Part shown: positions 260 to 61,532 of the stretch, one piece after another
How positions within the stretch are numbered: the first letter of the stretch is position 1
Layout of the letters: every line of letters begins with the position of its first letter
Source of the DNA: a virus
Taxonomy: Duplodnaviria > Caudoviricetes
IMG/VR virus record: IMGVR_UViG_2867207765_000001
Span: 30,514-94,513 of that record
DNA length: 64,000 nt
Strand: one strand, 5' to 3'
Translations under genes and position numbers: made by a program
The notes under the pieces: generated by a model
Databases searched by the model: none
What the model was told of the DNA's origin: nothing
Seen by the model: the letters and a program-made list of their open reading frames with translations, nothing else

Positions 260-344
260 GGAAGAGATCCGTTCTGTCGGCGCGAGCCGCCGACATCATC
301 CCTATGCGCGGGACCACGTCGGGGCTGCCGCGCACATGCGGAGC

Positions 345-1262
345 GTGACCCATCAGTTCGTGCGTAAGTCCCAGACCGGAGAGCCCACCAGCAACGGAGG
401 CCACTTCGGCAGCCACAAGCGCAGCAACGACCAGGTCAACCTCGGTCAGCTCGCCGCACCAGCAGGGGTTGGCAAGGAAGCCACCGTCTGGTGGGTGGAG
501 GAGGTGCCACCGGTCGGCCGGCAGCGCAAGCCCCGCCGGGAACGGAAGTCGGGCACCATCTGCGTCACACTCCCCGTCATCGCGGCGGAGGACGCCCCGG
601 TGACGTTCCGGGTGCCGTCGGAGTTCACCGATGACGAATCGGAAGTCCGCGAGTTCCGTACGTACGACGGGGCCCTCTACTGGTCGACGCCGTTCCACGA
701 CACCCACGCCACCGCCGAACAACTTCTCGGGCAGGTTGCATCCCGTGTCGGCCAGGAGACGCATCCCAGCAAGGACCACGCCCAGCGGGAGGCGCAGGAG
801 CGGCTGCGGGACATTGTCGTCATCGACGGGATCGTCTGGGAGAGGACTGCGGAACCCGGCTACCAGATCCGCACCTACGGGGAACCCGGCGGGAAGGACA
901 GCAGAACCACCATCGGGTACGGCATCAAGGCCGCCGACAAGCACGGAGATCCGTGGTTCCCCGCCAGCCCGGCCGGATACGGCACCGCCGTTCACGCCGC
1001 CCTCGAACTCGCCGCACAACGCGGCGATACTGAGTCCATGGAACGTATCCCGCAGACGAAGCAGATCGGCACCGCACCGGAGACGCCGGTCGGGACGTTC
1101 TGGGATGAGCCGAAGTTCCAGCAAGGCCTCCTCGAGGACATCCGCACCGAGATTGCCGATCGGAAGTACGAAGGCCGCGACACACCCGACATCATGGAGA
1201 AGCTCTACGCGCAGCGCGGCGACCTCGTCCGGAAGCTCCGCGCAGCTGGCTACGACGCGTAA
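345..1262 (+). CDS. hypothetical protein, paralog 1 of tandem triplet, N-terminal G-x-F tag
   Basis: GTG 10 nt after the CGCA of CGCACATG; shares APxxF, RxxDGxLY, VIDGxxW..EPxY and FPA motifs with the next two ORFs. Confidence 0.75.
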   Translation: MTHQFVRKSQTGEPTSNGGHFGSHKRSNDQVNLGQLAAPAGVGKEATVWWVEEVPPVGRQRKPRRERKSGTICVTLPVIAAEDAPVTFRVPSEFTDDESEVREFRTYDGALYWSTPFHDTHATAEQLLGQVASRVGQETHPSKDHAQREAQERLRDIVVIDGIVWERTAEPGYQIRTYGEPGGKDSRTTIGYGIKAADKHGDPWFPASPAGYGTAVHAALELAAQRGDTESMERIPQTKQIGTAPETPVGTFWDEPKFQQGLLEDIRTEIADRKYEGRDTPDIMEKLYAQRGDLVRKLRAAGYDA

Positions 1263-1289
1263 TACGCCGCGGCCGCGCACATGCCGGTC

Positions 1290-2285
1290 ATGACCGCAGA
1301 CAGCATCATCCGCAAGAGCCACACCGGGGAAGCCGGGAACCGCGGTGAGTTCGGAACGCACCGCCACGACGACGACACCATCGACCTTGGCGTTGCTGGA
1401 AAGGGAGCATCCCTGCCCGCGTACGAGCAGGAGGTGGGCATCTCCTGGTACGAGATGGGGCTGCCGTCCTCTCGTCACCGTAAGTTTGTTCCAATCAAGC
1501 AGGAGGGGACCCACATCGTTCGGATCCCGCAGGTCTCCGCGGCCGATGCTCCGGAAGCGATGACCTACATCAGCAAGGACGTCTGGACAAAGGAGGAGAC
1601 GGAGCACCGTTTCCGAGCCATCGACGGTGAGCTGTACCGGCTCGTGCCAGGCGGTGCTGACGCGGTCACCGGCATCGCCCGGAGGGAGAGCTCCGGCTCC
1701 CAGTACCCCGACCGTTGGGGTGAGACGGTTGGCTCAGCGAAGGTACGTCAGCAAATGGACGAAGCGATCGAGGACTTCGTCCTCATCGACGGTGAAGCGT
1801 GGAGGCGAACGCCGGAGCCTGTGTATCAGGTGTCTAACCCTGGGATGGGCGGGAGCTACGCGTTCATCAATGTCGCTGGCGCACCGGACACCAGCGAGGA
1901 GGCAGCCAGCAGCGACTTCTTCCCCGCCGACCAGTACGAAGAAGCAGTCGCGTTCGCTGGGCGGTTCGGACACGAGGTCAGCGGACCGGACGAGGGGAAC
2001 CGCATCACACCCATGAACGGGTTCATCCCCGGGTCGACCTGGACTCCAGCGACCCGCATCTCGTTCCCCGACGAGCCGCTGTACACGCTCGACAGTACAC
2101 AGTTCGCGAGCGCGTTCGCTGAGGTGCGGAGCACGGTGGAGTCGGTGCCCGGTGCCGTCACAGTCGTCGATGACGGGCGAGGCGGCACCCGCCGAAAGGT
2201 CGACTGGACGAAATTCACCGCTCATCAAAAGTCGCAGTACGAGAACTACGTCACGCGCGCGGTCGAGGAGGGATACCTCCTCTAA
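1290..2285 (+). CDS. hypothetical protein, paralog 2 of tandem triplet, G-x-F tag
   Basis: ORF 1281..2285, ATG 1290 at 10-nt spacing from the motif; clear similarity to neighbours. Confidence 0.8.
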   Translation: MTADSIIRKSHTGEAGNRGEFGTHRHDDDTIDLGVAGKGASLPAYEQEVGISWYEMGLPSSRHRKFVPIKQEGTHIVRIPQVSAADAPEAMTYISKDVWTKEETEHRFRAIDGELYRLVPGGADAVTGIARRESSGSQYPDRWGETVGSAKVRQQMDEAIEDFVLIDGEAWRRTPEPVYQVSNPGMGGSYAFINVAGAPDTSEEAASSDFFPADQYEEAVAFAGRFGHEVSGPDEGNRITPMNGFIPGSTWTPATRISFPDEPLYTLDSTQFASAFAEVRSTVESVPGAVTVVDDGRGGTRRKVDWTKFTAHQKSQYENYVTRAVEEGYLL

Positions 2286-2366
2286 CCAGTGCCGCCACGA
2301 GCGCCGCTGCGCCGCCAGGTGTTGCGGCGCTTCGTTGGTTCAGCAGTCCCCGCGCACATGCTGGTC

Positions 2367-3383
2367 ATGAACATGTCCACACCAGCGCACAAGGGGCAGG
2401 TCGGCGAACCCGGCCACGCCGGGCACTTCGCTCACACCCGTCACGACCACGACGAATCGGTCACCCTCAGCCTCGGCGCCCAGCCCGGCCGCGTTGACCT
2501 CGCACCGCTCACCCGCGAGGTCGACGTCGCCTGGTACGACCAGGAGCTCCCCTCGAAGCGGCACCGGAAGACAGTTGCCGTGGAGAAGCGCGGTACGGTC
2601 ACGGTGAGCATCCGCCGGATCGCCGTCGAGGACGCTCCCGCAGCGTTCTCGCGCCCCCTCGGACCGGAGAGCGACGCCGCCGTCATCAACTACCGGGTCG
2701 TCGACGGCCAGCTGTACTCCGACGCGGACGACCGCCGCGGTGAGCCATGGTCTGCAGTCAATGACCTCATCGACGACTGGGCTAACCAGTCACAGGCCGA
2801 CCAGTGGCACCACAAGACGGAGTCGGAGGTGAAAGCAAGCATCGAAGAGCGCGCCGAACGCGTCGTCGTCATCGACGACAAGACATGGGGGAAGGCGAAG
2901 GAGCCCGTGTACGGGATCACCACCTTCGGTCCCGGCGGAGGCGGCACCAGCATCTTCATCGAGACGGCGCCAACCACACAGCACGAAGCCGCAGACCCCT
3001 CCTACTTCCCAGCAGACCAGTACGACGAGGCGGTCGCATACGCGGTCGAAACGGCGACCCGCCGGGGCGACACCCAGTCGCTGGGTCGTCTGCAAGCCGC
3101 ACCACGCATCGAAGTGACCGGGGCGTTCCAGCCGGGAACGACCTGGAACCCGGCACCACGGTTCGAGTTCCAGTACGCATGGGAGAACCACGCCCGCGGG
3201 TTCGCCGCGTCATTCGCACAGCTCCGAAACGGCATCGCCTCAGTTCCCGGGGCCGTCGTCGTCGAACCGGACGGGAACGGCGGAACCCAACGACGGGTGG
3301 ACTGGACGACGGTCACCGCCGAACACAAGTCGGCGTACAAGAGCTACCTCGACCGCGCCGCGGAAGAAGGCATCCTCCTCTAG
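2367..3383 (+). CDS. hypothetical protein, paralog 3 of tandem triplet, G-x-F tag
   Basis: ATG 2367 at 10-nt spacing; C-terminus RRVDWT...RAAEEGILL matches RKVDWT...RAVEEGYLL of paralog 2. Confidence 0.8.
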   Translation: MNMSTPAHKGQVGEPGHAGHFAHTRHDHDESVTLSLGAQPGRVDLAPLTREVDVAWYDQELPSKRHRKTVAVEKRGTVTVSIRRIAVEDAPAAFSRPLGPESDAAVINYRVVDGQLYSDADDRRGEPWSAVNDLIDDWANQSQADQWHHKTESEVKASIEERAERVVVIDDKTWGKAKEPVYGITTFGPGGGGTSIFIETAPTTQHEAADPSYFPADQYDEAVAYAVETATRRGDTQSLGRLQAAPRIEVTGAFQPGTTWNPAPRFEFQYAWENHARGFAASFAQLRNGIASVPGAVVVEPDGNGGTQRRVDWTTVTAEHKSAYKSYLDRAAEEGILL

Positions 3384-3442
3384 CCGGGAACGACGGAGCG
3401 CCGCGGTCCGCTGGGCGGGCCGTGGCGCTTCGATGTTCGGGG

Positions 3443-4048
3443 TCAGACGGCAGTAGCGGGAGAGGTGGGTGTGCCGCGCAGGGCCGTCAGGAGCTCCCGT
3501 CGCATCCGCAGGAGCCGGTCGTCCTGCTCGGTCAGCTCCTGCTGCAACGTGTCCGGGTGATCCAGTTCCAGCTGCTCCCAGAACGACATCTCGCCTGGCG
3601 CTTCCGCGCGAGCGGCGAGGAGCAGCAGCGTCGCAACGTACTGCGTCTGCGCGATGAGACGACGGACCGCGTTCCGCGTTCGACGCGGCTGCGGGCCGGC
3701 TTCCTGATACGCCTCGAGCACCCGCTGCAATTCAACGACATGGCCAGTCACCGCAGCCCGGTAGCCGGGCATCGTGGCGAACTCCGGCGACGACGGAGCG
3801 ATTCGAGGCTTCGGAAACAGCAGCAGCCGCACGATGACGTACACGCTGCAGGCAATGAGGACACAGAACCAGCCGGATCCGATGACATCCGATCCCGAAG
3901 CGTCCAGGCCGCGCAGGAACGCCACACCGAGCAGCGCCACCGGTGCGGCCATGACCATGCGGATGAGGACCGGTCGGATGGTGTGCACACCGACGACGAC
4001 GTAGTCGTCGATGGCGGAGTACACGATGCGGGTGCGGGAGCCGAGCAT
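3443..4048 (-). CDS. membrane protein
   Basis: ORF 3443..4195 with start moved to ATG 4048 because the upstream part overlaps a tRNA; two TM segments. Confidence 0.65.
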   Translation of the reverse strand: MLGSRTRIVYSAIDDYVVVGVHTIRPVLIRMVMAAPVALLGVAFLRGLDASGSDVIGSGWFCVLIACSVYVIVRLLLFPKPRIAPSSPEFATMPGYRAAVTGHVVELQRVLEAYQEAGPQPRRTRNAVRRLIAQTQYVATLLLLAARAEAPGEMSFWEQLELDHPDTLQQELTEQDDRLLRMRRELLTALRGTPTSPATAV

Positions 4049-4109
4049 GCTGCGTCCGTTCGTCACGTGAGGTGCGGTCGAACGGTCTATGCGCAGCCAC
4101 TCAAGGCAG

Positions 4110-4183
4110 TGCCCCCGCCGGGACTCGAACCCGGAGTCTGCCGGGTAGAAGCCGGCTGCCGTGTCCAGTTGGGCCACGGAGGC
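4110..4183 (-). tRNA. tRNA-Arg(TCT)
   Basis: Cloverleaf; anticodon arm GCCGG-CTTCTAC-CCGGC; GGTTCGAGTCC T-arm. Confidence 0.9.
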
Positions 4184-4216
4184 AGAGGAGCCCACAGCGC
4201 AAGACAGGGCCGCGGC

Positions 4217-4430
4217 TACGCGGCGCGAGCGACAATGTCGTCGAACTCGTCGTCGGTGACGTCGTTCAGCGTCTGGTAGCCAGACGTCTGAAGTCGGTCG
4301 GCGACCTGAGCGAGCCAGGACAGGTCGTCCGGGTCAGCGTCGTGACGCTCGAGCAGGTACGCGCGGATGTCCGCCGGGCTCTTCCGGCCATGGCATCACG
4401 GATGCGCGTTGAGGTGGTGAAAACAGCCAT
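4217..4430 (-). pseudogene. small acidic protein gene split by a 1-nt frameshift
   Basis: RBS GAAGGAG + ATG 4430 gives MAVFTTSTRIRDAM; adding one G continues GRKSPADIRAYLLERHD...DDEFDDIVARAA*. Confidence 0.45.
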
Positions 4431-4651
4431 GGGAGATGCTCCTTCCAGAAGCGAATGTTCGAAGTTGTTCATGTGCTGCCGACAAGGGGGCGAGTGCCGC
4501 TACCGTTCCGGCTGTGGCGTTGCGATGGAGTATGGGATTACCCGGGCCGTTCTACCTTTCCGGGCGAGTGTTCCCGCGAATGCCGCACGGGCGGCGAACC
4601 AGTCTCCGCGCCCTCAGCCGCGACCCCGCTGTTCGCGCCGGCGGTCGCTTC

Positions 4652-4834
4652 ATGCGGCTGCTGCTGGTCGGCACCTGGTGGCTCGGTGTTGGGATGCTGA
4701 TTGTCGGCTACTGGATGTACCTCGGGTTCATAGCCGGCGTCTGGTGGGTGATTGCGTCGATCGTCGAGCGGAGACTGCTGCCGTGGCCTGTTCCCGCTCA
4801 TGCATGGCGGTTCTGGCGTCACACGGGCGTTTGA
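4652..4834 (+). CDS. small membrane protein
   Basis: Hydrophobic, Trp-rich 3' part of ORF 4436..4834. Confidence 0.45.
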   Translation: MRLLLVGTWWLGVGMLIVGYWMYLGFIAGVWWVIASIVERRLLPWPVPAHAWRFWRHTGV

Positions 4835-4841
4835 ACCGGGA

Positions 4842-4916
4842 TGGAGCGGCAGGCGGGACTCGAACCCGCTCCTCCTCGTCGGCAACGAGGTGCTCTACCA
4901 GTTGAGCTACTGCCGC
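4842..4916 (-). tRNA. tRNA-Gly(GCC)
   Basis: CCTCG-TTGCCGA-CGAGG; CCA encoded. Confidence 0.95.
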
Positions 4917-4988
4917 ACGGTCGACGGCGAGCGCAGGCATCAGATACTGCGTTCACCGACGTGGTGCTGCCGGTGACCGCGGAGCGGC

Positions 4989-5459
4989 CTACTTCCGCAC
5001 CGACGGTGTGGGCGATGGTGCCTCGTCGGGCGCCGGCAGTGGTGCCGTCCCGCGCAGGGGCGAAGGAACCGGCTTCGGAGCGACGGCACCAGCAGGACTG
5101 GTCGCCGCGATCCCCGGAGCGATAGCCCCCACCGCAGGAGCAGCGGCACGCGGCGGCGTCCTGCCGCCAGCGCTAGCCCCAGCGGTCGTCGAGGAGCCCG
5201 ACACTGTCCCCGCAGTGGTGCTGCCCGTGCCTGAGGTGCTTCCGGCGCTCGAGGTGGCGCCGGGCGGCGCGGGCGGCGCCGTGGCGCCGCCCAGCTGTGT
5301 CGTCGTGGTGGTGACGTCAGGGATGACGTGCTGCACGCTGCCGCCTCCGGAGACGAACAGGGCAGTGAGGACGGCGGCCGCTACCGCGACAACTACGAGA
5401 GCGGTAACGAGGATGACCCGCGAACGCTTGGCGCGCACGACGAACTCGTTAGTCCGCAT
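4989..5459 (-). CDS. membrane-anchored Thr/Ser/Pro/Gly-rich protein
   Basis: RBS GAAGGAG, N-terminal TM, low-complexity tail. Confidence 0.7.
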   Translation of the reverse strand: MRTNEFVVRAKRSRVILVTALVVVAVAAAVLTALFVSGGGSVQHVIPDVTTTTTQLGGATAPPAPPGATSSAGSTSGTGSTTAGTVSGSSTTAGASAGGRTPPRAAAPAVGAIAPGIAATSPAGAVAPKPVPSPLRGTAPLPAPDEAPSPTPSVRK

Positions 5460-5602
5460 AACTCTCCTTCCCCTTCTGGTATTGTTGTTGTGAACGACAG
5501 GAATGGTTCAGTTCCTGTTTCCGATGGGTGCCCCCGGCAGGTATCGAGCCCGCGTCCCCCGATTAAAAGTCGGGTGCTATTTCCGTCTCAGCTACGGAGG
5601 CA

Positions 5603-5677
5603 TGGAGCCTGAACCGGGATTCGAACCCGGGACATTCCGCTTACGATGCGGTTGCTCTACCACTGAGCTATTCAGGC
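5603..5677 (-). tRNA. tRNA-Thr(CGT)
   Basis: Loop ATCGTAA; CCA encoded. Confidence 0.92.
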
Positions 5678-5758
5678 TTGGATTGTTCCCGCCGGGAGGG
5701 TGTACATCCCGGCGGGAACAACGCTTCTATGCGCGGGCAGTTCCGGCTGCTGCGGCGA

Positions 5759-6472
5759 TTAGTTGCGGCAGCCGTTCCGGTACCAGTCCAGCGACTCCTG
5801 CAGCTGCTCCGGCGTGCCGTACTCGAGGCGGATTTGCGCCGGTCCGGTGAGCTCCCGCATGAGCACCCGAGGGGGCTGGAACGGGAAGCCGGCGTTCTCC
5901 AACCGGTCGTCCGCCTGCACAGCGTTCTTCCACGGGGTGTCGCCGGCCGGGTCGTAGAACCGGACCTCGTTGAGGAGCGCGGACCTCGTAACCCCGCTCT
6001 CGTCGGCGGAATCGAACCGAAGCAGGCCAAGTTCCGCTCGGAACCGGTACGCCAGCTTCCCGTCCTCGTCTCGCGCCCACGGATGCACGCCCTTCAGCGC
6101 GGTGTAGCCCGCACGCTCCCGGAAGTCCGGGACGGCGTTCGCCACCACAAGAAGCGGCAGCGTGTACATCCAGCTCTGCCGGTCTGTCGGGGTGATGATG
6201 AGCAGCGACGTCAGCTGCACAGTGGCGTCACCGAGCACCATCGGCGTGTACGGGACCGGGTTCCGTGTGATCGTCACCGTGTCCGGCACCTTGCCCTCGA
6301 GACGGGACAGCGGAAACACCGCCGACTCCGGCTGCGCGTCGCGGTCCCCGGTCCCGAGGAGCTCCAGCGTCACGTCCTCACCATCGATGGCGGCCACCCG
6401 GCCGTACCGCGGGAGACCCCGCTCCTGAGCGGAGATGTACGCGTTGCCGCCGACGTAAAGGTTCCTGGTCAC
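5759..6472 (-). CDS. hypothetical protein
   Basis: ORF 5759..6616, GTG 6472 with GGAG RBS and upstream CGCATAG motif (6519-6528). Confidence 0.7.
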   Translation of the reverse strand: MTRNLYVGGNAYISAQERGLPRYGRVAAIDGEDVTLELLGTGDRDAQPESAVFPLSRLEGKVPDTVTITRNPVPYTPMVLGDATVQLTSLLIITPTDRQSWMYTLPLLVVANAVPDFRERAGYTALKGVHPWARDEDGKLAYRFRAELGLLRFDSADESGVTRSALLNEVRFYDPAGDTPWKNAVQADDRLENAGFPFQPPRVLMRELTGPAQIRLEYGTPEQLQESLDWYRNGCRN

Positions 6473-6548
6473 GAGCGCTGCTCCGTTCCGCGGCGCCGTC
6501 GCGGCGCCGTCACGACCTCTATGCGCGGAACGGTGACACTCCTGTGCG

Positions 6549-6622
6549 AGGCGACGACAGGAATCGAACCTGCGTGACCCGGGTTGCAGCCGGGCGCCTA
6601 CGTGCCACTCAGCCACGCCGCC
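6549..6622 (-). tRNA. tRNA-Cys(GCA)
   Basis: CCCGG-CTGCAAC-CCGGG, U73. Confidence 0.93.
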
Positions 6623-6923
6623 ATGATGTGCCCGCCGCGGGAGCGTGACTCCCCGCGGGCGACTCCCAGATGTTGCACCGGGAGGTGGTTCGCGGGCGGG
6701 AGAGGCCCGACCCAGAGTCGCCCCTGGCCGGCTTGCACCGCTCGATTCCCCGGACCTTGCCGGGCCTGCGCACCCCGACGCAGCCTGCTGCTTCGGAGAC
6801 GGCTTCGGACTCCGCCCCTGAAGGCGTCACCGCGTCGCGTGAAAGGCGCGCGCCCACCTGTGAAGGTGAGCACGATGAGTGTGCGACTGCTCCACCGCGT
6901 CGTACGCGGTGTGCGTGGACCTG

Positions 6924-7370
6924 CTACCCGTTGGACGGGCCAGCGGGCACGGTGGTGGCGGTCGGCATGGGTGTTCCGTGCGGGACCGGGGTGATGGAGC
7001 CGTTGTCGCCGACGACTGCGCCGGCGTCGGGGACGGCCGGTGTGAAGTCGCGGACGAACGGTGTCTCCGTGACCGCACCCCGAACGGACTCGCCGAGCGC
7101 GGGAACCGTCTGGCCGGCCCGGTAGTACACCCACGTGGTGGCGACCTCGTGTTCCGCGCAGTTTTCGTCCGGAAGCCGCTCCAACGTCTTCGTGTCGGAG
7201 CAGACCTTCGCGTACCAGTACGTCGTGTGTTGGGCGGACGAGCCATCGTCCGTCATCAGGCCCAAGGACCAGAAGATGCCGATCAGGAAGACGAACAGGG
7301 AGATGACCAAGCAGATGGGAAGGACTGCGTCCTCGATGTCACCGCGATCAGAGCGGAGGAAGTTCTTCAC
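6924..7370 (-). CDS. exported/membrane protein with two-Cys module, paralog of 15984..16511
   Basis: TM segment, then VCSDTKTLERLPDENC...WVYYRAGQTVPALG, similar to ACVAKTTHKRVADSNC...WYFYPYGATVPAVG. Confidence 0.7.
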   Translation of the reverse strand: MKNFLRSDRGDIEDAVLPICLVISLFVFLIGIFWSLGLMTDDGSSAQHTTYWYAKVCSDTKTLERLPDENCAEHEVATTWVYYRAGQTVPALGESVRGAVTETPFVRDFTPAVPDAGAVVGDNGSITPVPHGTPMPTATTVPAGPSNG

Positions 7371-7437
7371 GCCGTCCCCTATGCCTGCGACATCGGATGA
7401 GAAGGGCGGGCCGCCGCGCCCAACAACTGAGCGGCTT

Positions 7438-7510
7438 GGACCTGGTCAGACTCGAACCCGCGGTGCCCGGCATGCCCTGCAGGTGCGCCACCGGCTGCGC
7501 GACAGGCGTG
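7438..7510 (-). pseudogene. degenerate copy of tRNA-Ala(GGC)
   Basis: Aligns along its length with the tRNA at 7728-7800 but has broken anticodon and T stems. Confidence 0.7.
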
Positions 7511-7727
7511 CCCGGCCGTCGCGCGTGAGTGCGCGACGGCCGGATTGTCGCTTCCCCGCAACAGTGGCCGACGGTATTGCCGCAACTTGATACGGGTACT
7601 ACTTCGGGTTGCCCAGATGGATGGTCCGGAGTTACCGCTGCCGCCTCTACCGTCGCGGGGCGCCCGCCGGCGGGTGCTGGTGCGACGGCCTGTACGGCAA
7701 TGTCCGTGCGTCTCCCAACGCACGACG

Positions 7728-7800
7728 TGGACCTGGCCGGGCTCGAACCGGCGACCCCCTGCATGCCATGCAGGTGCGCTACCAACTGCGCCACAGGCCC
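7728..7800 (-). tRNA. tRNA-Ala(GGC)
   Basis: CCTGC-ATGGCAT-GCAGG; G3:U70. Confidence 0.95.
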
Positions 7801-7907
7801 ATGCTTCCGGCCGTCGGACAGGTTCTGCTGCCGACAGCCGGACCGTTCCACTGATCGGCTCAGTGGGAAGCCTCCCCACTCCTATGCAGGGTGGGGACGT
7901 TCAGCCG

Positions 7908-8969
7908 CTACGCGTCATTCTTCATCGCGTACTTGTTGCTGATGGCCTTCCAGGACGCGCGGATGACCTTCCCGTCCACGACGATCTTCGACGTTGTCTT
8001 CGCCCGCCAGACGACACCCTCGGCGTTGCGCTGCGGATTCACCAGCGACTTCAGACCGTCGACCTGCGCGAGCGCCTCGTCCGAGGTGTGCGGGTACGGC
8101 AGGTCGTAGACGGGAACGGCGATGTCGAGGACGAACTGCGGCCAGGAGTCGCGGGGGAGCTCCTGCCCGTCGACGATGAGGGTGAACGCGGCGAAGGTGA
8201 CGTCGCGGAGCTGCAGCGGGTTCTTCTGGATGCCGGGCCCGAACAGCTCACCCTGCAGGGCGATGGTGTTCGCGTCCGGGAACGCGCTGCGGAGCCGGTT
8301 GTGCAGGTCGAGTTCGAGGGCCTTCTTCCACATGGAGTGGTCCTCGTTCCGCTTGAACTCGTAGTTGCGGCCAGCGACACCGTCCTGGTCGCCGAGGATG
8401 AACACCGTCATCGACGTGCCGTCGACCTTCTCGGTGGCGACCCACTCGACGTCGCGGGCGCGCAGCGGCTCCGACACGTTCTGGATGCGCTCCTCGTCCG
8501 TCTTTGGGAACTGCGCGGGGAAGTTCCCAGCGACGTCACCGGCGATACCAGCAGGCAGCGGCGGGTCCCACTTGCGGACCCGGAGGACGTCGGTGACGTC
8601 GGTGCCGAAGTCGAGGCCGGCGACCTCGGGGAACTCGGACAGCGGGAACACGATGCCCTGCGAGTACTGGCCGCGGAGCTTCGCGGTCTTGAGGACATGG
8701 CCGGTGAACCCGGTCAGCGCGTCGGTGCGTACGCCACGCGGGGCGAGGAACGCGAACCGCGGGTCGGTGGTGTCCAGGTGGGAGTCCACCTCGATGTACA
8801 CGCACGGGTCGCCGATGGAGAACTCGCCCTTCTTCACCACGACGTCCCAGCCGCGGACGCGAACACGCTCGATGGCGTCGGCGTCAGGGATGGGCTGCAC
8901 GTCGAGGATGGTTTCAACGGTTGCGAGTGCACGTTCCGTCGTGGGCGGCTGAATGAGGATGTCGGTCAT
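7908..8969 (-). CDS. RNA ligase, Rnl2 / DRB0094 family
   Basis: N-terminal PIPDADAIE...LRGQYSQG domain; nucleotidyltransferase motifs TEKVDGTS, QGELFGPGIQKN, EGVV, KAISNKY. Confidence 0.92.
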   Translation of the reverse strand: MTDILIQPPTTERALATVETILDVQPIPDADAIERVRVRGWDVVVKKGEFSIGDPCVYIEVDSHLDTTDPRFAFLAPRGVRTDALTGFTGHVLKTAKLRGQYSQGIVFPLSEFPEVAGLDFGTDVTDVLRVRKWDPPLPAGIAGDVAGNFPAQFPKTDEERIQNVSEPLRARDVEWVATEKVDGTSMTVFILGDQDGVAGRNYEFKRNEDHSMWKKALELDLHNRLRSAFPDANTIALQGELFGPGIQKNPLQLRDVTFAAFTLIVDGQELPRDSWPQFVLDIAVPVYDLPYPHTSDEALAQVDGLKSLVNPQRNAEGVVWRAKTTSKIVVDGKVIRASWKAISNKYAMKNDA

Positions 8970-8976
8970 GGCTCTT

Positions 8977-8986
8977 CTATGCGCGG
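8977..8986 (-). promoter_or_regulatory. CCGCGCATAG element-specific promoter motif (example; leaderless start of the RNA ligase)
   Basis: CGCA lies exactly 10 nt before ATG 8969 with no SD; the motif and close variants recur more than 20 times. Confidence 0.65.
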
Positions 8987-9021
8987 AGTTCGGCGCTGCA
9001 ATGCAACAGCAGCTGGCGGGA

Positions 9022-9372
9022 TCACGCTATGGCGAATGCAGTGATCCGATGTCCGTTCTCGGTGAACCAGGTGCCGTGCTGACCTCCGATGAGGACGAGC
9101 TCATCGTCTTTCCCGTCGAGGCGGGCGATGGCGCACACCCCGTCGGTGTCGGCGATGAAGGTGCCGGTGTAGGCGAAGTGGTCGTCACCTCCGGCGCTGA
9201 TGCTGAACACTGCCCGGTCACCGTCCTGTGCGGCCGCGACGTTCACCGGGGTGAGCCCGTCGGTGCTGACCCCGTGCGCGGAGAGGTTGACGGCAGACGG
9301 GGTGAACGTCTTCTCGCTGAAGCGGCCGTCGGTGCTGCGGGGATGGTCGGAGGTCACAAACGTGGCGGTCAT
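9022..9372 (-). CDS. hypothetical protein with HPR...GRF tag
   Basis: MTATFVTSDHPRSTDGRFSEK; paralog of the N-terminal half of 9416..10195. Confidence 0.75.
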   Translation of the reverse strand: MTATFVTSDHPRSTDGRFSEKTFTPSAVNLSAHGVSTDGLTPVNVAAAQDGDRAVFSISAGGDDHFAYTGTFIADTDGVCAIARLDGKDDELVLIGGQHGTWFTENGHRITAFAIA

Positions 9373-9415
9373 AACCGATCTGTGTGCGGCAGCCAGCCGG
9401 CGGTGCCGATGGGGC

Positions 9416-10195
9416 CTACTTCTCCGGCCGGGTGAGGCGGTACAGGGTGCAGTCGCCGCGTCGGACGGTGACGGAGTCGCCGTCGAGGTCCTCCTCGAGA
9501 AGGCCGCGGCGGACCAGGGAGTCCACGGTCTCCTGGTTGTAGCAGTACGCGTCGTCGCCGATCATGGCGTGCCCGGACCGGTGCCCGTCGACGACGTATA
9601 CGCGGCCGCGGCCGTACTTGTCGGCGAACTCGAGTGCGTCCTTCGCGACGGCGGAGACGCCTGAGTCGCGCGGCTTCCACTTCGGCGGTGTGTAGAACTG
9701 CACGGCGGGGAAGGACGTGGCGAACCGCTGCCCGGCGAGCGGCCCGTCCTGGAACTCCCATGGCGTTGGGTCGTACGTCTCGCCCTTCCGGAGGTTGCGG
9801 GATGGAGCGTCGGCGGCTGGGTCGTTCCAGTCGGCCAGCGGCAGCTCGCGCTCAGTGAAGGCGCGGAGACGGTCGCCGTCCTCAGTGAACCACGTTCCGC
9901 TGGCGGTACGGGACGCGGTGATGCGGGCGCCGGTGCCGTCCGCGTCGATGGTGACGAACTCTCCGTCAGCGGCGTCAACAGTGCCGCGGAAGGTGCGCGT
10001 GTCATCGTAGGTGTGAACGCGGACGGTGACCCGCTGGCCCTCGTGCACTCGTTCCAGGGCGACGATCCCGTGCTTGTCCGTGTTCACCATGGTGGTGCCG
10101 GCGCGCTCGAGGGTGACGGCGTCACCCGTGAACGTCTTCTCGGCGAACTTCCCGGAACGGGCGCGGGGGTGGTCGGACTCAATGAAGGCGGTCAT
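9416..10195 (-). CDS. hypothetical protein with HPR...GKF tag
   Basis: MTAFIESDHPRARSGKFAEK; shared GTWFTE(N/D)G motif. Confidence 0.8.
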   Translation of the reverse strand: MTAFIESDHPRARSGKFAEKTFTGDAVTLERAGTTMVNTDKHGIVALERVHEGQRVTVRVHTYDDTRTFRGTVDAADGEFVTIDADGTGARITASRTASGTWFTEDGDRLRAFTERELPLADWNDPAADAPSRNLRKGETYDPTPWEFQDGPLAGQRFATSFPAVQFYTPPKWKPRDSGVSAVAKDALEFADKYGRGRVYVVDGHRSGHAMIGDDAYCYNQETVDSLVRRGLLEEDLDGDSVTVRRGDCTLYRLTRPEK

Positions 10196-10215
10196 GCTCG
10201 GGATGTGCGCGGCGG

Positions 10216-10288
10216 TGCCGTTGGCGGGACTCGAACCCGCGACCTTCCGCTCCGGAGGCGGACGCTCTATCCACTGAGCTACAACGGC
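10216..10288 (-). tRNA. tRNA-Arg(CCG)
   Basis: TCCGC-CTCCGGA-GCGGA; A20. Confidence 0.95.
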
Positions 10289-10301
10289 GGGTCCTCGCAG
10301 A

Positions 10302-10835: not shown

Positions 10836-10875
10836 TCGACACGCATCCTTCCCGTGATGAGGCTGACTTTCGTTG

Positions 10876-10949
10876 TCCGGATGACAGGATTTGAACCTGC
10901 GACCTCCCGCTCCCAAAGCGGGCGCTCTACCAAACTGAGCTACATCCGG
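10876..10949 (-). tRNA. tRNA-Pro(TGG)
   Basis: CCCGC-TTTGGGA-GCGGG. Confidence 0.95.
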
Positions 10950-10972
10950 ATAGTCCCGCCACAGCGGAACCG

Positions 10973-11045
10973 TGGACCTGATCGGATTCGAACCGACGAC
11001 ATCTGCCTTGCAAAAGCAGCGCTCTACCAACTGAGCTACAGGCCC
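10973..11045 (-). tRNA. tRNA-Ala(TGC)
   Basis: Loop TTTGCAA; G3:U70. Confidence 0.95.
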
Positions 11046-48482: not shown

Positions 48483-48545
48483 CCTCGCCGGGTGCCGGCG
48501 GCGCTCTGGCATAGGGGTTGGCGACCGCACCTCGAAGGAGCACCC

Positions 48546-49253: not shown

Positions 49254-49351
49254 CCGGGGGAGCAGCCGCTCGCTGCAGGCGTCCCATGAGCGGCGCTGTC
49301 CGCGCACAGAGAGACCAGCAGCCGCCACAGTAGAAGGAGCGCCACCAACTC

Positions 49352-55890: not shown

Positions 55891-56315
55891 CCGCGCACAC
55901 GTCAGCTATGACCACCAGCGACAGCAACGGCAACCTCCACGCCCACGACGGGAGGTTTGCGGAGAAGCATCACAGTGAGGACAGCGCGGTCCGGCTCGAC
56001 GCACCGCGACCGTTGAACAGCCGGCGAAACCCGGTCCTCGCTCACGCTCGCACACTTCGCGACGACATCGACGCTCTCCGCGCCCTCCGCTACGACGTCG
56101 CCCCCGACTATCGGCACGACCCGGACATCGATGACGTGGCGAAGCAGGCCACCCAACAGGAGCTCGACCACGCAGACCGTGTTCTCGGGCGGCTCATCCG
56201 CACCCACCAGAGCTATCCTTTCGCCTAACCCGCCGCCGCACACACGTCAGCTATGACCACCAGCGACAGCAACGGCAACCTCCACGCCCGCGACGGGAAG
56301 TTCGCCGAGAAGCAT
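55891..56315 (+). repeat. ~80-bp direct repeat (55891-55970 and 56237-56315) covering promoter motif plus N-terminal tag
   Basis: cacacgtcagctatgaccaccagcgacagcaacggcaacctccacgccc...gagaagcatca twice. Confidence 0.85.
55908..56228 (+). CDS. hypothetical protein with G-x-F tag
   Basis: MTTSDSNGNLHAHDGRFAEKHH. Confidence 0.75.
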   Translation: MTTSDSNGNLHAHDGRFAEKHHSEDSAVRLDAPRPLNSRRNPVLAHARTLRDDIDALRALRYDVAPDYRHDPDIDDVAKQATQQELDHADRVLGRLIRTHQSYPFA

Positions 56316-56603
56316 CATGCAGCGGACGATGTGACCCTCACGCCGGCGCCGAGGACGGCGTCGGGCGTCTACGAGAACATGGCCCATGCCCGGCTCGACA
56401 GCATTGCTGCGAACCTCGAGCGCATCGCAGAGGAGGTTCGCAGGCAGCATGACCGTTTGGCGGAAAACCCGGTTGACGCCGCAACATCGGCCGTTCACAG
56501 CGTCATGTGGGGGATGGCGAACCTGAACCTGGACCAGCTGGTGAACCACGCGGGGCTCATCGCCTACCACCGTGCTGAGGAAGCCGGCCGCGCGAACGAC
56601 TGA
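56253..56603 (+). CDS. hypothetical protein with G-x-F tag
   Basis: MTTSDSNGNLHARDGKFAEKHH. Confidence 0.75.
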   Translation: MTTSDSNGNLHARDGKFAEKHHAADDVTLTPAPRTASGVYENMAHARLDSIAANLERIAEEVRRQHDRLAENPVDAATSAVHSVMWGMANLNLDQLVNHAGLIAYHRAEEAGRAND

Positions 56604-57498: not shown

Positions 57499-57939
57499 AT
57501 GGCTGACGCTCTCGCACCACTCACGGCGTTCGTCGGCAGCCATCCCCTTGTCGCTGCTGGTGTCGCGCTGGCGCTGGTCGTCGTTGCCGTCGCCCGGAAG
57601 GGACGCGGGGACGGGAAGCCGCAAACGGACCAGCGGCGGATGTTCTCCGGCGCGCAGAAGCAGGAAGCGAAACGGCGCGCAGGAGGCCGTTGCGAGCACT
57701 CCTCCGCCGGGTTCCGCTGCAAGCAGCCGGGGCAGCACGCCGACCACATCTACCCCTGGTCCAAGGGCGGCGCGACCGAGATGTCGAACTGCCAGTCGCT
57801 GTGCGCCACCCACAACCTGCAGAAGTCGAACCACGTCCCCAGCCCGTTCTACATCCACCGTCTCCAGCGTCGTCGCGCCCGCTACTTCCCGACCGGGGTC
57901 AGCCCCCGCGTTGAGTGGCGCCTCGGCCGCGCGCGCTGA
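57499..57939 (+). CDS. membrane-anchored HNH endonuclease
   Basis: N-terminal TM; [24 protein letters not shown]. Confidence 0.88.
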
Positions 57940-57953
57940 ACGGCGGCGACGCG

Positions 57954-60077
57954 ATGGCCGACATGCAACGCCCGCAAGGGTTCGACGACACCGCCGACGG
58001 CGGGGCAGCGCAGCAGCAGTCGCCGGCGCAGCAGCATCAGCGTCAGCCGACAGCACCCGGCGGCGGGCCCCGCCGACCGGGACTGCTCGGTCAGGGAGCC
58101 AGCGCCGGTCTTGGCGCGGTTGGCCGCGCTGTCGGCGGTCGCACCCCTGGTCGCAGCCGCTTCGCCAGCATCCGCGACACCGCGTCCACCTTCGGCAGCA
58201 GCGCTCCGTCCACCTCTGCGCAGGCGGCGTCCGGCGCTGAGCAGGCGAAGGACTTCGCCAAGGACGCCGTCAAGGAAATCGCCAAGGGCGCGCTCACCGG
58301 CGGGTACGCCGGCGCCGCGAAGGGCGCGTTCAAGGCCATCATCCGCAACAAGTGGGCGATGACCACCATTGGGTTCATCGTCGTCGCCATCATCGCCGGA
58401 CCGGCGCTGCTCATCGGTGCGGTCGCGATGAGCGCCAGCACCGCGAAGAACGCCGCGAACGCGCACGCCAACGACGTCGCCGTCGCCACTGCCGTCGCCA
58501 GCGGCCAAACCGACGACGCGGTCGCGAAAGCTCAAGCGGACACCGCGCAGTCGAACATCCCCTGGCAGATCTGGCTGGCGTACACCGACAACGGCGGGCA
58601 GACGCAGGACACCGCAGGGAACTCCATGCTCGATGACCTGTCGTCCGCGCTGGCAAAGCAGGACGGACACACCTCCGACTGGGACCTGCTGAACGGCGCT
58701 GAACTAGTGGAGAACTCCTCCTCGGAGTACAAGCTCAGCACCGACAGCGACGACAAGCAGGCGCAAGCCACCACCGAGAAGCTCTACGACGCGGTGCTGC
58801 AGAACCCCGGAGCGCTGCCCGCAGCAACCGCAGACACGGTGTTCACCACCGCCCGCAGCTGGGCGCTCGGCCTCGTGTCCGCCTGCTCCTCCAACGGCTC
58901 CGCGTCCGCGTCCGGAGATGGCGCACCACAAGCAACCGGGGTACCAGCCGAACGGGCACCCGTCGACAAGAACCCAGGCGGCACGCTGACGACGCTCGCG
59001 CCCGGCCAGGTGAACAACGCCCGCGCCATCATCGGTATCGCCAAGACCATCTTCGCCAAGTCCAGCGAGGATGACCAGAAGCAGGCGGCGCTCATCGGTC
59101 TCATCACCGCGCTGGTGGAGTCGAACATTGAGAACCTGGACTTCGGCGACCGGGACTCCATTGGCGCGTTCCAGCAGCGAGACACCTGGGGCACCGAGAC
59201 GGAACGCACCAGCATCTACTACTCGTCGTCGGCGTTCTTCAACCGGCTCATTGCGAAGAAGACCTGGGCGACCGGAGAACCCGGCGCCGTCGCTCAGTCG
59301 GTGCAGATCTCCGGCTACCCGGACCGGTACGCGCAGAAGGAAGGCATCGGCCGGGAGATCCTCGCCGCGTACTGGGACGGCGTTGACCCCATCGCTGAGC
59401 CGAACCCGCCAGGACCGCCGGTGACCGTCACCGACGGGCACGGCCACGCCCTCGCCGGCAGCACCACCACCAGCAGCAGCAGCGGAACCAGTGGCAGCAG
59501 TGGTGGCGCGGACAGCGTCTCCAGCTGCACCGTCAGCAGCAGCTTCACTGGCGGTTCGGTGGGCACGAATGACCCGGGCCCCGACCATCCGGGACCCGGC
59601 GCAACCTCCTCCGGTGCCCAAGCGAACGGCGAAGAAGTCGCCGCGGCGCTCGCATTCGCAGGCCAGCAGCTCGGAAAGCCGTACCAGCTCGGCGGCGCCG
59701 GGCCCGACGTCTGGGACTGCTCTGGCCTGGTCATGGTGTCCTACGGCACCGCCGGGGTCGGCGTCGGCATGAAAGACGGCGTTCCGCAGCACGACTCCCA
59801 CAAGCAGTTCAGCCTCGCAAAGTCCGACCAGGTGTTCCCGTACTCGCAACGCGAACGCGGGGACCTGCTGTTCTGGGGACGCCCGAACACCAGCATCTAC
59901 CACGTCGGTTTCTACCTTGGGCAGGACGCGAAGGGGCAGGACTGGATGCTCGCCGCTCCGAAGGAAGGCGACGTCGTCAAGATTCAGCCTGTGTGGGGCG
60001 GCCCCGCCGGACAGGGCGACCTGATGGACAAGGTTGTCCGCCCCACCGTCGACCCGTTCAAGGCCGCCGGCAAGTAG
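57954..60077 (+). CDS. membrane-anchored peptidoglycan hydrolase (lysozyme-like + NlpC/P60), conjugation-type
   Basis: ALVESNIENL..GDRDSIGAFQQR...VQISGYPDRY; GKPYQLGG...DCSGLV...HVG. Confidence 0.88.
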   Translation: MADMQRPQGFDDTADGGAAQQQSPAQQHQRQPTAPGGGPRRPGLLGQGASAGLGAVGRAVGGRTPGRSRFASIRDTASTFGSSAPSTSAQAASGAEQAKDFAKDAVKEIAKGALTGGYAGAAKGAFKAIIRNKWAMTTIGFIVVAIIAGPALLIGAVAMSASTAKNAANAHANDVAVATAVASGQTDDAVAKAQADTAQSNIPWQIWLAYTDNGGQTQDTAGNSMLDDLSSALAKQDGHTSDWDLLNGAELVENSSSEYKLSTDSDDKQAQATTEKLYDAVLQNPGALPAATADTVFTTARSWALGLVSACSSNGSASASGDGAPQATGVPAERAPVDKNPGGTLTTLAPGQVNNARAIIGIAKTIFAKSSEDDQKQAALIGLITALVESNIENLDFGDRDSIGAFQQRDTWGTETERTSIYYSSSAFFNRLIAKKTWATGEPGAVAQSVQISGYPDRYAQKEGIGREILAAYWDGVDPIAEPNPPGPPVTVTDGHGHALAGSTTTSSSSGTSGSSGGADSVSSCTVSSSFTGGSVGTNDPGPDHPGPGATSSGAQANGEEVAAALAFAGQQLGKPYQLGGAGPDVWDCSGLVMVSYGTAGVGVGMKDGVPQHDSHKQFSLAKSDQVFPYSQRERGDLLFWGRPNTSIYHVGFYLGQDAKGQDWMLAAPKEGDVVKIQPVWGGPAGQGDLMDKVVRPTVDPFKAAGK

Positions 60078-60142
60078 CGGCCGCTGCTTGTCCGCGCATA
60101 CCCACTTCCAGCACCCCACCTCGCAACCGATAGGGACTCCTG

Positions 60143-60892
60143 ATGGACCGCCGCAGACTCCTCACCATCCTCGGAATCGTCGCCGCCGGCGTCATCCTCC
60201 TCGCCGTCATCGTCGTGAACTTCTCCGCCGCGCACCACCAGCAGCAGGCGAAGGAGGAAGGGACCTCCGGCGTTGCCAGACACAGCACCACCCCGGAGCG
60301 CACCCAAACGGCAGCCACGCCGACACCCACCGCGGTCGGCAGGGCCTACCCGGGGCAGAACATCGACACGTCGTTCACCCCATCGCCGACGTACGTCGGC
60401 ACACCGCAGCAGGAACGCGACGCGAACTCCAGCGCGCAGGGCGCAGCCCCGAACGCGCAGGACACCGCCGACCAGACCGCAGCGGAAGCAGCCGCGGAAG
60501 CGTTCGTCCGCACCTGGGTCGGCTACGACGACAGCACCGCCACCGCAGCGCAGTCCCGTGCGACCGCAATCAAGAGTTTGGAAGCACCCGGCGCGAACCT
60601 CGAAGCCAGCCACTCCCGCCTCGCCGACTCGTACCAGGACTCCGGCGCCACCAGCCACACCGTCACCATCGACGGCGTCACCAGCGTGTACCCGGACGGG
60701 CAGCGCAACGGCCACTGGGTGATGCTCGTCACCGGGTCGTGGACCAGTGACGCGAACATCGCTGGCCACATCAACGAACTCCACGGCGAAGGGTCCTGGA
60801 TCGTCGAACTGCCCGCCCACGCAGGGAACCCGCAGCCGGTGTACTCCATCGAGGAGTCCCTCGGCGACTACAACGCCGACGAGGACAACTGA
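60143..60892 (+). CDS. single-TM exported protein (possible conjugation component)
   Basis: N-terminal TM; AEAFVRTW helix; follows the hydrolase. Confidence 0.7.
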   Translation: MDRRRLLTILGIVAAGVILLAVIVVNFSAAHHQQQAKEEGTSGVARHSTTPERTQTAATPTPTAVGRAYPGQNIDTSFTPSPTYVGTPQQERDANSSAQGAAPNAQDTADQTAAEAAAEAFVRTWVGYDDSTATAAQSRATAIKSLEAPGANLEASHSRLADSYQDSGATSHTVTIDGVTSVYPDGQRNGHWVMLVTGSWTSDANIAGHINELHGEGSWIVELPAHAGNPQPVYSIEESLGDYNADEDN

Positions 60893-60935
60893 CCCCCTGC
60901 CGGACCGTTTCAGCGACGCCGCACACACGTAGGGC

Positions 60936-61532
60936 ATGACAGCAGGCAAGCACCAGGTCCGCGCCCGTGACGTCGGCGCTGCCGTCGCGACGGGCCACTC
61001 GTCCACCGAGTTCGCCGCCCACCGCCGGCCAGAAGCGACCACGGAACTCACGCACCCCGTAGCCGGATGGGACACCGCTGTCACGGAACCAACCCACGAC
61101 CAAGTCGCTCGTGCGCGCGGCGCCGCGCGGCGCACGCTGATGTTCCGCCCGGGCGCCACCGCCGCCGACCTCGAGGAACTCACCCGGCAGAAGGCGCTCG
61201 TTATCGCCGACCAGGAAGCGGCATACCACGCGTGGAAAAACGGTGAACCACACCCGGACGACCAGGCGTACGGCGACATCTGGGCCGGGAACGCTGCCGG
61301 GGTCAGCCGAGCCGACGTGGAACGCAAGCTCGCCGACGCGCTCGCCGCCCGAACCAGCAACCCCACCCCGGGCCCCGGCCGCGGCTACCGGAACACCCGG
61401 CTCGCGCAGGAGCACCTCGACGAACGCATCGCCCTGTACCGGGAGGCGCTGGAATGCGAGGGACGGAACCTGTCCGTCAACCAGGCCAACGTCCGCCAGC
61501 AGAAGCGGTGGGACGTCGGCATCCCCTTCTGA
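60936..61532 (+). CDS. hypothetical protein with variant tag (STEFAAH)
   Basis: CGCACACAC upstream; 198-aa ORF. Confidence 0.7.
   Translation: MTAGKHQVRARDVGAAVATGHSSTEFAAHRRPEATTELTHPVAGWDTAVTEPTHDQVARARGAARRTLMFRPGATAADLEELTRQKALVIADQEAAYHAWKNGEPHPDDQAYGDIWAGNAAGVSRADVERKLADALAARTSNPTPGPGRGYRNTRLAQEHLDERIALYREALECEGRNLSVNQANVRQQKRWDVGIPF

Follow-up and report, generated by a model that had tools for sequence, protein, structure and literature searches.

The window analyzed here comprises 64 kb of DNA (bases 30514–94513) from a 94,513-bp contig that was collected as a virus record, and it contains eight genes whose products share an N-terminal module of ~35 residues, hereafter referred to as the tag, placed in front of bodies that are mostly unrelated to each other. 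Each of these genes starts exactly 8 nt downstream of one variant of a short, two-variant DNA motif. Judged by gene content and by its sequence motifs, the window belongs to a giant extrachromosomal element of Curtobacterium that is similar to pCPAA3, the 567,298-bp plasmid of Curtobacterium pusillum AA3, and the tagged genes of that plasmid have the same arrangement. The tag resembles a motif that is present at the junctions between modules in phage proteins. The reading that we favor, and hold tentatively, is that the tag would act as a handling signal for a co-regulated arsenal of effectors that travels with, or acts just after, the transfer of DNA.

A Portable N-terminal Module

The tag is polar, Cys-free, and His-rich and is followed by a linker in which Ala, Pro, Gly, Ser, and Thr make up 50% of the residues as compared with 36% in the bodies. 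It contains either [FW]-N-E-x-D-H-P-R or R-K-x-x-T-G-E-P-G-N, then G-x-F-x2-K/H, and then D-x-V-T-L; the Phe is shared by all 34 tags that were aligned. The eight tagged starts listed in a preliminary description of the window all exist (that at 345 is a GTG and the rest are ATG), and each lies downstream of CCGC[G/A]CACA. The N-terminal pattern proposed there, G-[RKHE]-F-x2-[KHT]-x6-8-[VI]-x-L, fits seven of the eight as written, and the eighth, at 60936, is the weak variant (T-E-F...E-L-T) that had been noted. The set has proved to be larger than first described, with dozens of members on pCPAA3 and three more in the contig upstream of the window, at contig positions 22941(+), 27349(−), and 29161(−), all with the start codon 8 nt after CACA. 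Two of these three begin M-T-T-W-N-x-x-D-H-P/L-R...G-x-F-x-G-K...D-D-V-T-L, which joins both flavors of tag seen in the window, and the third has a weak variant (1.0 bit) that is kept in its pCPAA3 orthologue at 68% identity.

The bodies of the eight window proteins form five BLASTP groups, in agreement with the earlier estimate of about five families. The products of 345, 1290, and 2367 constitute family A (E 1e-14 to 1e-53), those of 9372(−) and 10195(−) are a weak pair (E 1e-4), and those of 55908, 56253, and 60936 are singletons; none of the eight has a significant match in Pfam or PHROGs. A profile built from nine tags and run at a threshold of E 1e-3 against 1.84 billion representative proteins matched 76 proteins, six of them from this contig. 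Of these, 68 are proteins of 59–413 residues in which the match begins at residue 1–15, and their bodies, together with those of two further homologues, fall into 50 BLASTP clusters (70 bodies in all). Pfam recognized only six families among the tagged bodies (DprA, DUF7007, DUF2958, GNAT, and LRV/HEAT), to which a second search added DUF262, in a body of the DUF262/ParB-like nuclease type, and PF27633. The portability that had been proposed for the tag is thus seen in five body groups in the window and in ~50 clusters world-wide, and the variety of the bodies excludes the alternative that the tag is part of one shared domain.

The tag has a narrow distribution. Named homologues of the tagged proteins are exclusively on Curtobacterium contigs of 38–567 kb, three of which are 546–567 kb. 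In the genome that contains pCPAA3, 44 of the 47 matches to the tag fall on this plasmid and the three chromosomal matches have E > 0.5; the plasmid has 46 distinct tagged or weakly tagged genes, 32 of them at 260–392 kb, adjoining its tRNA array. Among sampled genomes, for each of which only the top candidates were scored, 2 of the 301 from the family and 1 of the 401 from the class had the tag, the last being the genome of pCPAA3 itself. The tag was not found in any solved structure (best E 0.18), a feature search of the ESM Atlas with tag residues 1–40 returned only unnamed clusters, all below 0.9, and a back-translated R-K-x-H-T-G-E-P-G-N pattern had no matches in IMG/VR. A Sec or Tat signal peptide was considered and rejected, as none of 60 tagged proteins has a 15-residue Kyte-Doolittle window of 1.6 or more in the first 60 residues (maximum 1.33).

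The tags are better conserved than the remainder of the proteins in each of three families (82 versus 65%, 46 versus 35%, and 70 versus 60%), and synonymous codons are used at their conserved Gly and Leu residues; on this pattern of substitution, the tag is under selection at the protein level. Tags and bodies also recombine. A unit of ~84 bp at 55891 and 56237, consisting of the promoter-like motif and 22 codons, is near-identical in its two copies and has unrelated DNA on either side, much as the ~80-bp duplication of the preliminary description. In an exchange between replicons, the body encoded at contig 27349(−) (L002:11753–12349) is 52% identical over ~148 residues to one encoded at ~273.6 kb in pCPAA3, and the two have different flavors of tag. 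Several tag matches end at residue ~30. The cassette shuffling that had been proposed is consistent with all three of these features, namely the 84-bp unit before different bodies, the orthologous bodies with different tags, and the matches that end near residue 30.

A DNA Motif Variant Linked to the Tag

The element has a short DNA signal with two variants, tCCGCGCATAGAGG (the CATA form) and CCGC(G/A/C)CACA (the CACA form). The contig has 25 CGCGCATA sites, with the consensus tCCGCGCATAGAgG, and 11 sites of the type CGCRCACA-N8-start; alignment of these 25 and 11 sites revealed no conserved −35 region in either class. That untagged genes have a separate motif class, as had been suggested, is borne out by the CGCGCATA sites in the contig and by 16 CGCGCATAG sites in the window. 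The spacing of 10 or 12 nt reported initially requires correction because the start codon is 8 nt after CACA in all eight of the window genes, a distance that is found in 40 of 40 tagged genes when those of the contig and pCPAA3 are combined.

The association between motif variant and tag was assessed with sites that have a start 5–10 nt downstream and a frame that stays open for 60 codons or more, a score of at least 15 bits defining a tagged product. In pCPAA3, the CACA class (n = 56) includes 31 tagged, 14 weakly tagged, and 11 untagged genes. In contrast, the CATA class (n = 69) has no tagged, one weakly tagged, and 68 untagged genes (Fisher p = 2.6e-14). In this contig the CACA class (n = 12) has nine tagged, one weak, and two untagged members as compared with none, none, and 11, respectively, in the CATA class (n = 11; Fisher p = 3.4e-4). 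Paralogy inflates these class counts somewhat, although most of the bodies are unrelated. Conversely, six-frame tag matches are preceded by the motif in 9 of 9 cases in the contig and in 27 of 35 on pCPAA3. In G288, a third genome from this family, GC[CG]CACAT followed by 8 nt, which places the start 9 nt after CACA, precedes six of eight tagged genes; of the remaining two, one has the motif but its start is unresolved in the alignment and one is without the motif. The tie between the tag and a single promoter-like variant, part of the preliminary description, is therefore seen in three separate replicons, and CGCRCACA is enriched upstream of tagged genes across the replicon and in its relatives. 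The G288 genes (2.2-Mb genome; loci L065–L068 on contigs C5–C7, ~62% G+C), at least eight in number, have a single flavor of tag, M-S-T-F-D-P-T-Q-H-P-R-G-N...G-Q-F-A-T-K, and one of them is interrupted by a TAG codon.

The number of motif copies is in itself less telling. The window has nine copies of CCGCRCACA as compared with 3.71 ± 1.93 in shuffled sequences, of which 2 in 100 reach nine, so that the raw count is just mildly enriched; what exceeds chance is the fixed spacing to the start together with the shared protein motif. Eight of the nine copies are those of the tagged genes. The ninth (CCGCGCACA, 49300–49308(+)) has no start codon 8 nt downstream and is located after the open reading frame (ORF) 48483–49253, ~26 nt before the ORF 49334–49651. 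On pCPAA3, trimmed of a 20.4-kb terminal assembly overlap, there are 131 CCGCGCATA sites, 52 of them with an open start exactly 8 nt on, and 84 CCGC[GAC]CACA sites, 50 of them with such a start. Both signals are specific to the plasmid, which accounts for all 7 occurrences of CCGCGCATAGAGG and all 30 of CCGCRCACA-N8-ATGAC; the 3.9-Mb host chromosome has none.

From these properties we infer that the motif represents an element-specific family of −10-only promoters that would give rise to many leaderless mRNAs; the latter would be expected at the approximately half of sites where the motif is exactly 8 nt before a start codon. A canonical sigma-70 promoter was rejected because there is no conserved −35 region and the consensus pair (TTGACA-17-TATAAT) has no sites, versus 0.8 expected, in window positions 1–11000, which include five of the tagged genes. 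A single-strand (Frpo-like) hairpin promoter was also rejected, the eight upstream regions, folded as DNA, having z values of −2.26 to +0.84 and no common structure. An ORF with sigma-70 region 2 is encoded by pCPAA3 itself. Contigs from four RNA-library runs (two samples of one study) are identical to parts of tagged genes at a depth of 3–6; such contigs cannot show starts and may arise from DNA carry-over.

A different function for the DNA motif, that CCGCGCATAGAGG and CCGCRCACA are start-associated translation signals and not promoters, appears unlikely. It would account for the short, fixed distance to start codons and for RNA-library contigs that cross two of the sites, and the GAGG in the CATA form could pair with 16S rRNA. 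However, the CACA form has no Shine-Dalgarno-like bases, CATA sites are also found upstream of tRNA genes (by 29–45 nt on pCPAA3 and by 29–58 nt when the window is included), and 59 of the 131 CATA sites and 29 of the 84 CACA sites on pCPAA3 have no start within 3–12 nt.

Relationship to a Phage Junction Motif

Among the profile matches are large proteins in which the similarity is repeated. Five of these (P0012, P0013, P0016, P0059, and P0062) have two to seven such stretches (E 7.7e-8 to 3.2e-4) that conform to W-[DN]-E-x-x-H-P-R-x3-7-G-x-F-x-x-K and are located between modules, the domains of which include ART-PolyVal, TopoIB, and NUDIX. Three other large matches, P0007, P0011, and P0033, were judged to be unrelated repeat proteins. 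NCBIfam gave no match for three tagged proteins nor for four of the five large carriers of the motif.

A back-translated W-[DN]-E-x-x-HPR pattern identified at least 109 stretches in IMG/VR (raw count), and the 82 distinct viral occurrences that were examined, in 80 loci, are on contigs of 34–71% G+C. The motif is in the first 60 residues of the ORF in 21 of the 82 and internal in 55, its position being undefined in six, and the 20 residues that follow it are 60% Gly, Ser, Thr, Ala, or Pro. Ten viral ORFs with the motif were scanned against Pfam, and they comprise four groups. (i) Four have Phage_portal_3, then the motif, and then a PBECR nuclease or LPD13. (ii) Three are of polyvalent type; one has the order Acb1, methyltransferase, motif, Zeta kinase, and in the others the motif follows ART-PolyVal or TopoIB. 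(iii) One is a protein of 234 residues with the motif at residue 24 followed by PBECR1, encoded among capsid, cement, connector, and neck-terminator genes. (iv) Two are uninformative, with a lone PI3_PI4_kinase match or no match. Alignment of the plasmid tags with the viral segments by hhalign gave a probability of 82% (E 1e-5) over 21 columns, which, because the viral alignment was selected by the motif, is a match at the level of the motif.

From these sequence comparisons, the tag appears to represent the motif W-[DN]-E-x-x-H-P-R-x3-G-x-F in stand-alone, N-terminal form; on the giant plasmid family it precedes DUF262, DprA, DUF7007, GNAT, and unannotated bodies. The text of Iyer et al. 2017 (PMC5512222) describes the portal-/MuF-fused and polyvalent classes as early effectors that are packaged in the virion or co-transferred. 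The motif was not found in the text, as distinct from the figures and supplements, of PMC5512222, PMC3482391, or PMC12226406; in these texts the string HPR is absent from PMC3482391 and is present in PMC5512222 only within HHPRED. Literature searches with spellings of the motif as strings retrieved no paper, although published alignments might still show it. The motif is widespread in phage and plasmid effectors, and we could not find it described.

The Element and the Tagged Genes of the Window

The contig and the window both have a G+C content of 67%. When the family A alignment was compared with species-representative genomes, pCPAA3 was the sole locus matched, and the pCPAA3 orthologues of family A and other tagged proteins are 34–68% identical to those of the contig. 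The product of 9416–10195(−) has an identical counterpart on a 607,661-bp contig. The features shared with pCPAA3-like replicons are common gene content, an array of tRNA and tmRNA genes, and both DNA motifs with the 8-nt spacing. Megablast and tblastn against GenBank phages found no close relative, nor did scans of IMG/VR with single proteins, although the record itself may be missing from these collections. The tagged genes and their motifs are listed in Table 1.

Table 1. Positions of the tagged genes of the window, the motifs upstream of them, and two sites of the other motif class
Feature	Positions	Strand	Remarks
CCGCGCACA promoter-like motif	328..336	+	8 nt before GTG 345
Tagged gene, family A, 305 aa	345..1262	+	Tag residues 1–35, R-K-x-Q-T-G-E-P...G-H-F...V-N-L type; 63.3 bits versus tag profile
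CCGCGCACA motif	1273..1281	+	8 nt before ATG 1290
Tagged gene, family A, 331 aa (P0006)	1290..2285	+	Relative on pCPAA3
CCGCGCACA motif	2350..2358	+	8 nt before ATG 2367
Tagged gene, family A, 338 aa	2367..3383	+	
CCGCACACA motif	9381..9389	−	8 nt before ATG 9372
Tagged gene, family B, 116 aa	9022..9372	−	Tag type D-H-P-R...G-R-F-S-E-K...V-N-L
CCGCGCACA motif	10204..10212	−	8 nt before ATG 10195
Tagged gene, family B, 259 aa (P0001)	9416..10195	−	Tag kept in homologues at 50–52% identity
CCGCGCACA motif	55891..55899	+	8 nt before ATG 55908; opens ~84-bp duplicated unit
Tagged gene, 106 aa (P0009), singleton body	55908..56228	+	
CCGCACACA motif	56236..56244	+	8 nt before ATG 56253; second copy of ~84-bp unit
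Tagged gene, 116 aa (P0008), singleton body	56253..56603	+	
CCGCACACA motif	60919..60927	+	8 nt before ATG 60936
Weak-tag gene, 198 aa, singleton body	60936..61532	+	2.8 bits; pCPAA3 orthologue (53% identity) keeps variant N terminus and motif
Other class, CGCGCATAG	8977..8985	−	CATA 8 nt from ATG 8969; untagged 353-aa ORF 7908–8969
Other class, CGCGCATAG	61556..61564	+	CATA 8 nt from GTG 61572; untagged SNF2-type helicase

On the minus strand between 4109 and 20097 the window has 34 tRNA genes and a tmRNA gene, interspersed with small ORFs and CGCGCATAG sites; the counterpart array of pCPAA3, at 252–266 kb, has 35 tRNAs and a tmRNA. In the RNA libraries several contigs end with adapter letters at window position 5504 or 5532, at or beside tRNA-Lys, and the bin at 7708–8074 that includes tRNA-Ala has a depth of ~275 in three of the four runs as compared with 3–20 elsewhere. 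Other products of the window include DnaE, an SNF2-type helicase, a ParA-like ATPase, a hydrolase of glycosyl hydrolase family 6 (cellulase-type; 23699–24724(−), E 1.7e-59), which is unusual cargo for such a replicon, and a protein of 720 residues (57915–60077(+)). The latter has a lysozyme-like middle that matches the lysin domains of tape-measure proteins and a C-terminal NlpC/P60 domain, an architecture as compatible with a lysin of a phage tail as with a cell wall hydrolase of conjugation.

Upstream of the window, the contig encodes NAPRTase, two TnpB proteins, TerC, TerD, TelA, a DNA methylase, a dNMP kinase, a DNA ligase, and RtcB. The two TnpB genes (IS605 OrfB/Cas12f-like; L001:1857–3434(+) and contig 20397–21998(+), the latter also L002:5397–6998) have products with near-identical N termini, and both start 8 nt downstream of CGCGCATA, suggesting that a transposon-type gene uses the start signal of the element.

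The PLSDB entry for pCPAA3 carries no annotation, and PMC8929003 and PMC10832533, in the text dealing with this plasmid, are confined to its size, its genes for polymerase III, a distant terminase-like gene, and the tmRNA. In the pCPAA3 record (L034, L061–L062) the initial ~20.4 kb recurs at the end, the first 60 bases being present again at 546,887. This repeat is probably the untrimmed overlap of a circular assembly, in which case the true size is ~546.9 kb.

A Possible Role for the Tag

The tentative assignment of the tag as a handling signal would give the following sequence of events. The element would read its own short signal, which has two variants and no −35 partner, and the CACA form would define a temporal or conditional class of leaderless transcripts from the set of small genes that it marks, at least 11 in this contig and ~46 on pCPAA3. 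The tag would then hand each passenger effector to the DNA-transfer or packaging machinery of the element, possibly being processed later, so that the co-regulated arsenal would enter, or act in, the newly invaded cell. The idea of a targeting signal, which was already part of the preliminary description, gains indirect support from the resemblance between the tag and the motif found ahead of effector modules in polyvalent proteins and in fusions to phage portal proteins.

Several observations weigh against this assignment. Secretion signals of type IV systems are usually C-terminal. No machinery able to use such a signal was identified on pCPAA3, which has no Pfam matches to Phage_capsid, Terminase_6N, or TerL_ATPase and is classed as non-mobilizable by MOB-suite, with no relaxase detected; the hints of a transfer machine on it are limited to a VirB4-like AAA_10 ORF and FtsK-like ORFs. 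A docking signal would be redundant in portal fusions, which favors processing or some other role. The phage likeness has its own limits. The viral set was chosen with a pattern that was designed after the likeness had been seen, so that the conservation of its conserved columns was built in by the selection, and H-P/L-R is kept in just 4 of 11 contig tags (9372(−), 10195(−), and those at contig 22941(+) and 27349(−)), the others including two with degradation to N-L-H and three with replacement by R-K-x-x-T-G-E. The R-K-x-x-T-G-E flavor, to which most tags belong, lacks the HPR core. The link to the DNA motif is also incomplete, since 8 of the 35 tag matches on pCPAA3 are without the strict motif (the variant CCGCATACA is present at three of those eight) and 11 of its 56 CACA-class genes are untagged. 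Finally, RNA-library contigs 2066–2450 and 9051–9419 span two of the putative starts, perhaps as a result of read-through or DNA.

Two other functions of the module are improbable to a similar degree. In the first, it is a processing site or propeptide, and cleavage at this site or beyond it (for example after V-x-L) by an element or host protease would free fused modules and remove or activate the head-piece. The related motif is present at nearly every module junction of the large proteins and between portal and nuclease domains, where release makes sense, it is followed by a flexible stretch rich in Gly/Ser or Ala/Pro, and proteolytic processing of polyvalent proteins is predicted in the text of Iyer et al. 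2017 (PMC5512222). However, the motif of the plasmid proteins begins at residue 4–10, with nothing useful upstream to remove, no protease was identified on the contig, and there is no cleavage consensus beyond small residues after V-x-L. In the second, the module is not a transport signal and instead tethers effectors to one conserved cellular hub, such as a chaperone, a nucleoid protein, or a ribosome-associated factor, once they have been synthesized in the cell or have entered it. A universally conserved partner agrees with the occurrence of the related motif across viral contigs of such varied G+C content, i.e. in many host groups, and the polar character of the module, without a hydrophobic core, is that of a short linear binding motif; the restriction of the plasmid-type tag to one element family and the lack of a solved structure with the motif argue against it.

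A role as a degron or timing device, by which every early protein of the element would be equally short-lived, is very unlikely for the tag. A common promoter variant and a common N terminus would provide joint control of synthesis and decay, and the head-piece, which is predicted to be exposed and flexible, is better conserved than the bodies, but this role leaves unexplained why portal fusions and polyvalent proteins have internal copies between their modules, and no likeness to known degrons was found. Hardly any weight can be given to the proposal that the N terminus has no function as protein and is carried along by a mobile 5′ cassette (promoter and first codons) that captures genes by recombination, for despite the sharp borders of the 84-bp unit and the swaps of tags between orthologous bodies, G-x-F and V-x-L are kept, with synonymous codons at conserved residues, in tags whose DNA diverges widely, tags are better conserved than bodies, and in other proteins the related motif has an internal position, remote from any promoter.

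The assignment as a handling signal can be extended to a wider proposal, which is possible though rather doubtful. The head-piece would be the stand-alone form of a general, unnamed passenger signal, and the shared W-x-E-x-x-HPR...G-x-F core would mark every module loaded by phages behind their portal or sent along with the DNA of conjugative and giant elements. On the Curtobacterium replicons it would be carried by ~50 separately promoted, leaderless, exchangeable effectors, which a change of one base in a −10-only promoter specific to the element, recognized by a sigma factor of its own, would turn on as a single class.

If the tag is a delivery or handling signal, it provides a sequence rule for listing the proteins that are the first to be sent or deployed by an invading element, covering ~50 mostly uncharacterized proteins here together with thousands of portal-fused and polyvalent modules in phages, as well as a portable peptide with which the loading of foreign cargo could be tested. 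A two-variant, element-only promoter with a fixed 8 nt to the start would be suited to the study of leaderless expression and of the transcriptional autonomy of giant plasmids. The pCPAA3-type replicons themselves (0.55–0.6 Mb, encoding a tmRNA and an almost complete set of tRNAs) have barely been described.

Comparison with Known Systems

The DNA motif has parallels in two groups of phages. The late promoters of phage T4 consist of a −10 element only, TATAAATA, and are read by a minimal sigma factor. The signal described here is likewise a short, element-specific motif of 8–9 bp, with many copies and no −35 region, and is absent from the host chromosome; it differs in being G+C-rich, in its sequence, and in the fixed 8 nt to starts, which would imply leaderless mRNAs. 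In Cluster K mycobacteriophages, start-associated sequences, conserved over ~13 bp that include the ribosome-binding site, are located just upstream of a subset of genes. As in those phages, the present motif marks only part of the genes of an actinobacterial mobile element and lies immediately upstream of their start codons, but the CACA form has no ribosome-binding site and the CATA form also precedes tRNA genes.

The organization of the tagged proteins is similar to that of the internal proteins and Alt of phage T4, which have a capsid targeting sequence of ~10–19 residues that is removed by the prohead protease. In both systems a short conserved N-terminal peptide is attached to hypervariable cargo, conservation of the 5′ end of the gene extends to its promoter, and recombination exchanges the cargo. 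The two peptides do not resemble each other in sequence, and the present system is not known to have a prohead, a scaffold, or such a protease. Polymorphic toxins also combine a conserved N-terminal address with variable C-terminal cargo that diversifies by cassette exchange, as set out in the text of Zhang et al. 2012 (PMC3482391), where each N-terminal trafficking address is an entire domain that belongs to a known secretion system and immunity genes adjoin. The address of the tagged proteins is a peptide of 35 residues, and no immunity pairs were noted.

Similarity in sequence is seen with the junction motif of portal-/MuF-fused effectors and of polyvalent proteins from phages and conjugative elements. 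In the present system the module is always at the very N terminus of small stand-alone proteins, has the D-x-V-T-L extension, and is accompanied in each gene by its own promoter-like site; most copies have R-K-x-x-T-G-E-P-G-N instead of W-x-E-x-x-HPR, and no portal or MuF domain was seen. What the two systems have in common is the core [FW]-[DN]-E-x-x-H-P-R...G-x-F-x-x-K followed by a flexible linker, its location on the N-terminal side of an effector module, its occurrence in invasive elements, and the kinds of body to which it is joined (ParB-like/DUF262, GNAT, and nucleases).

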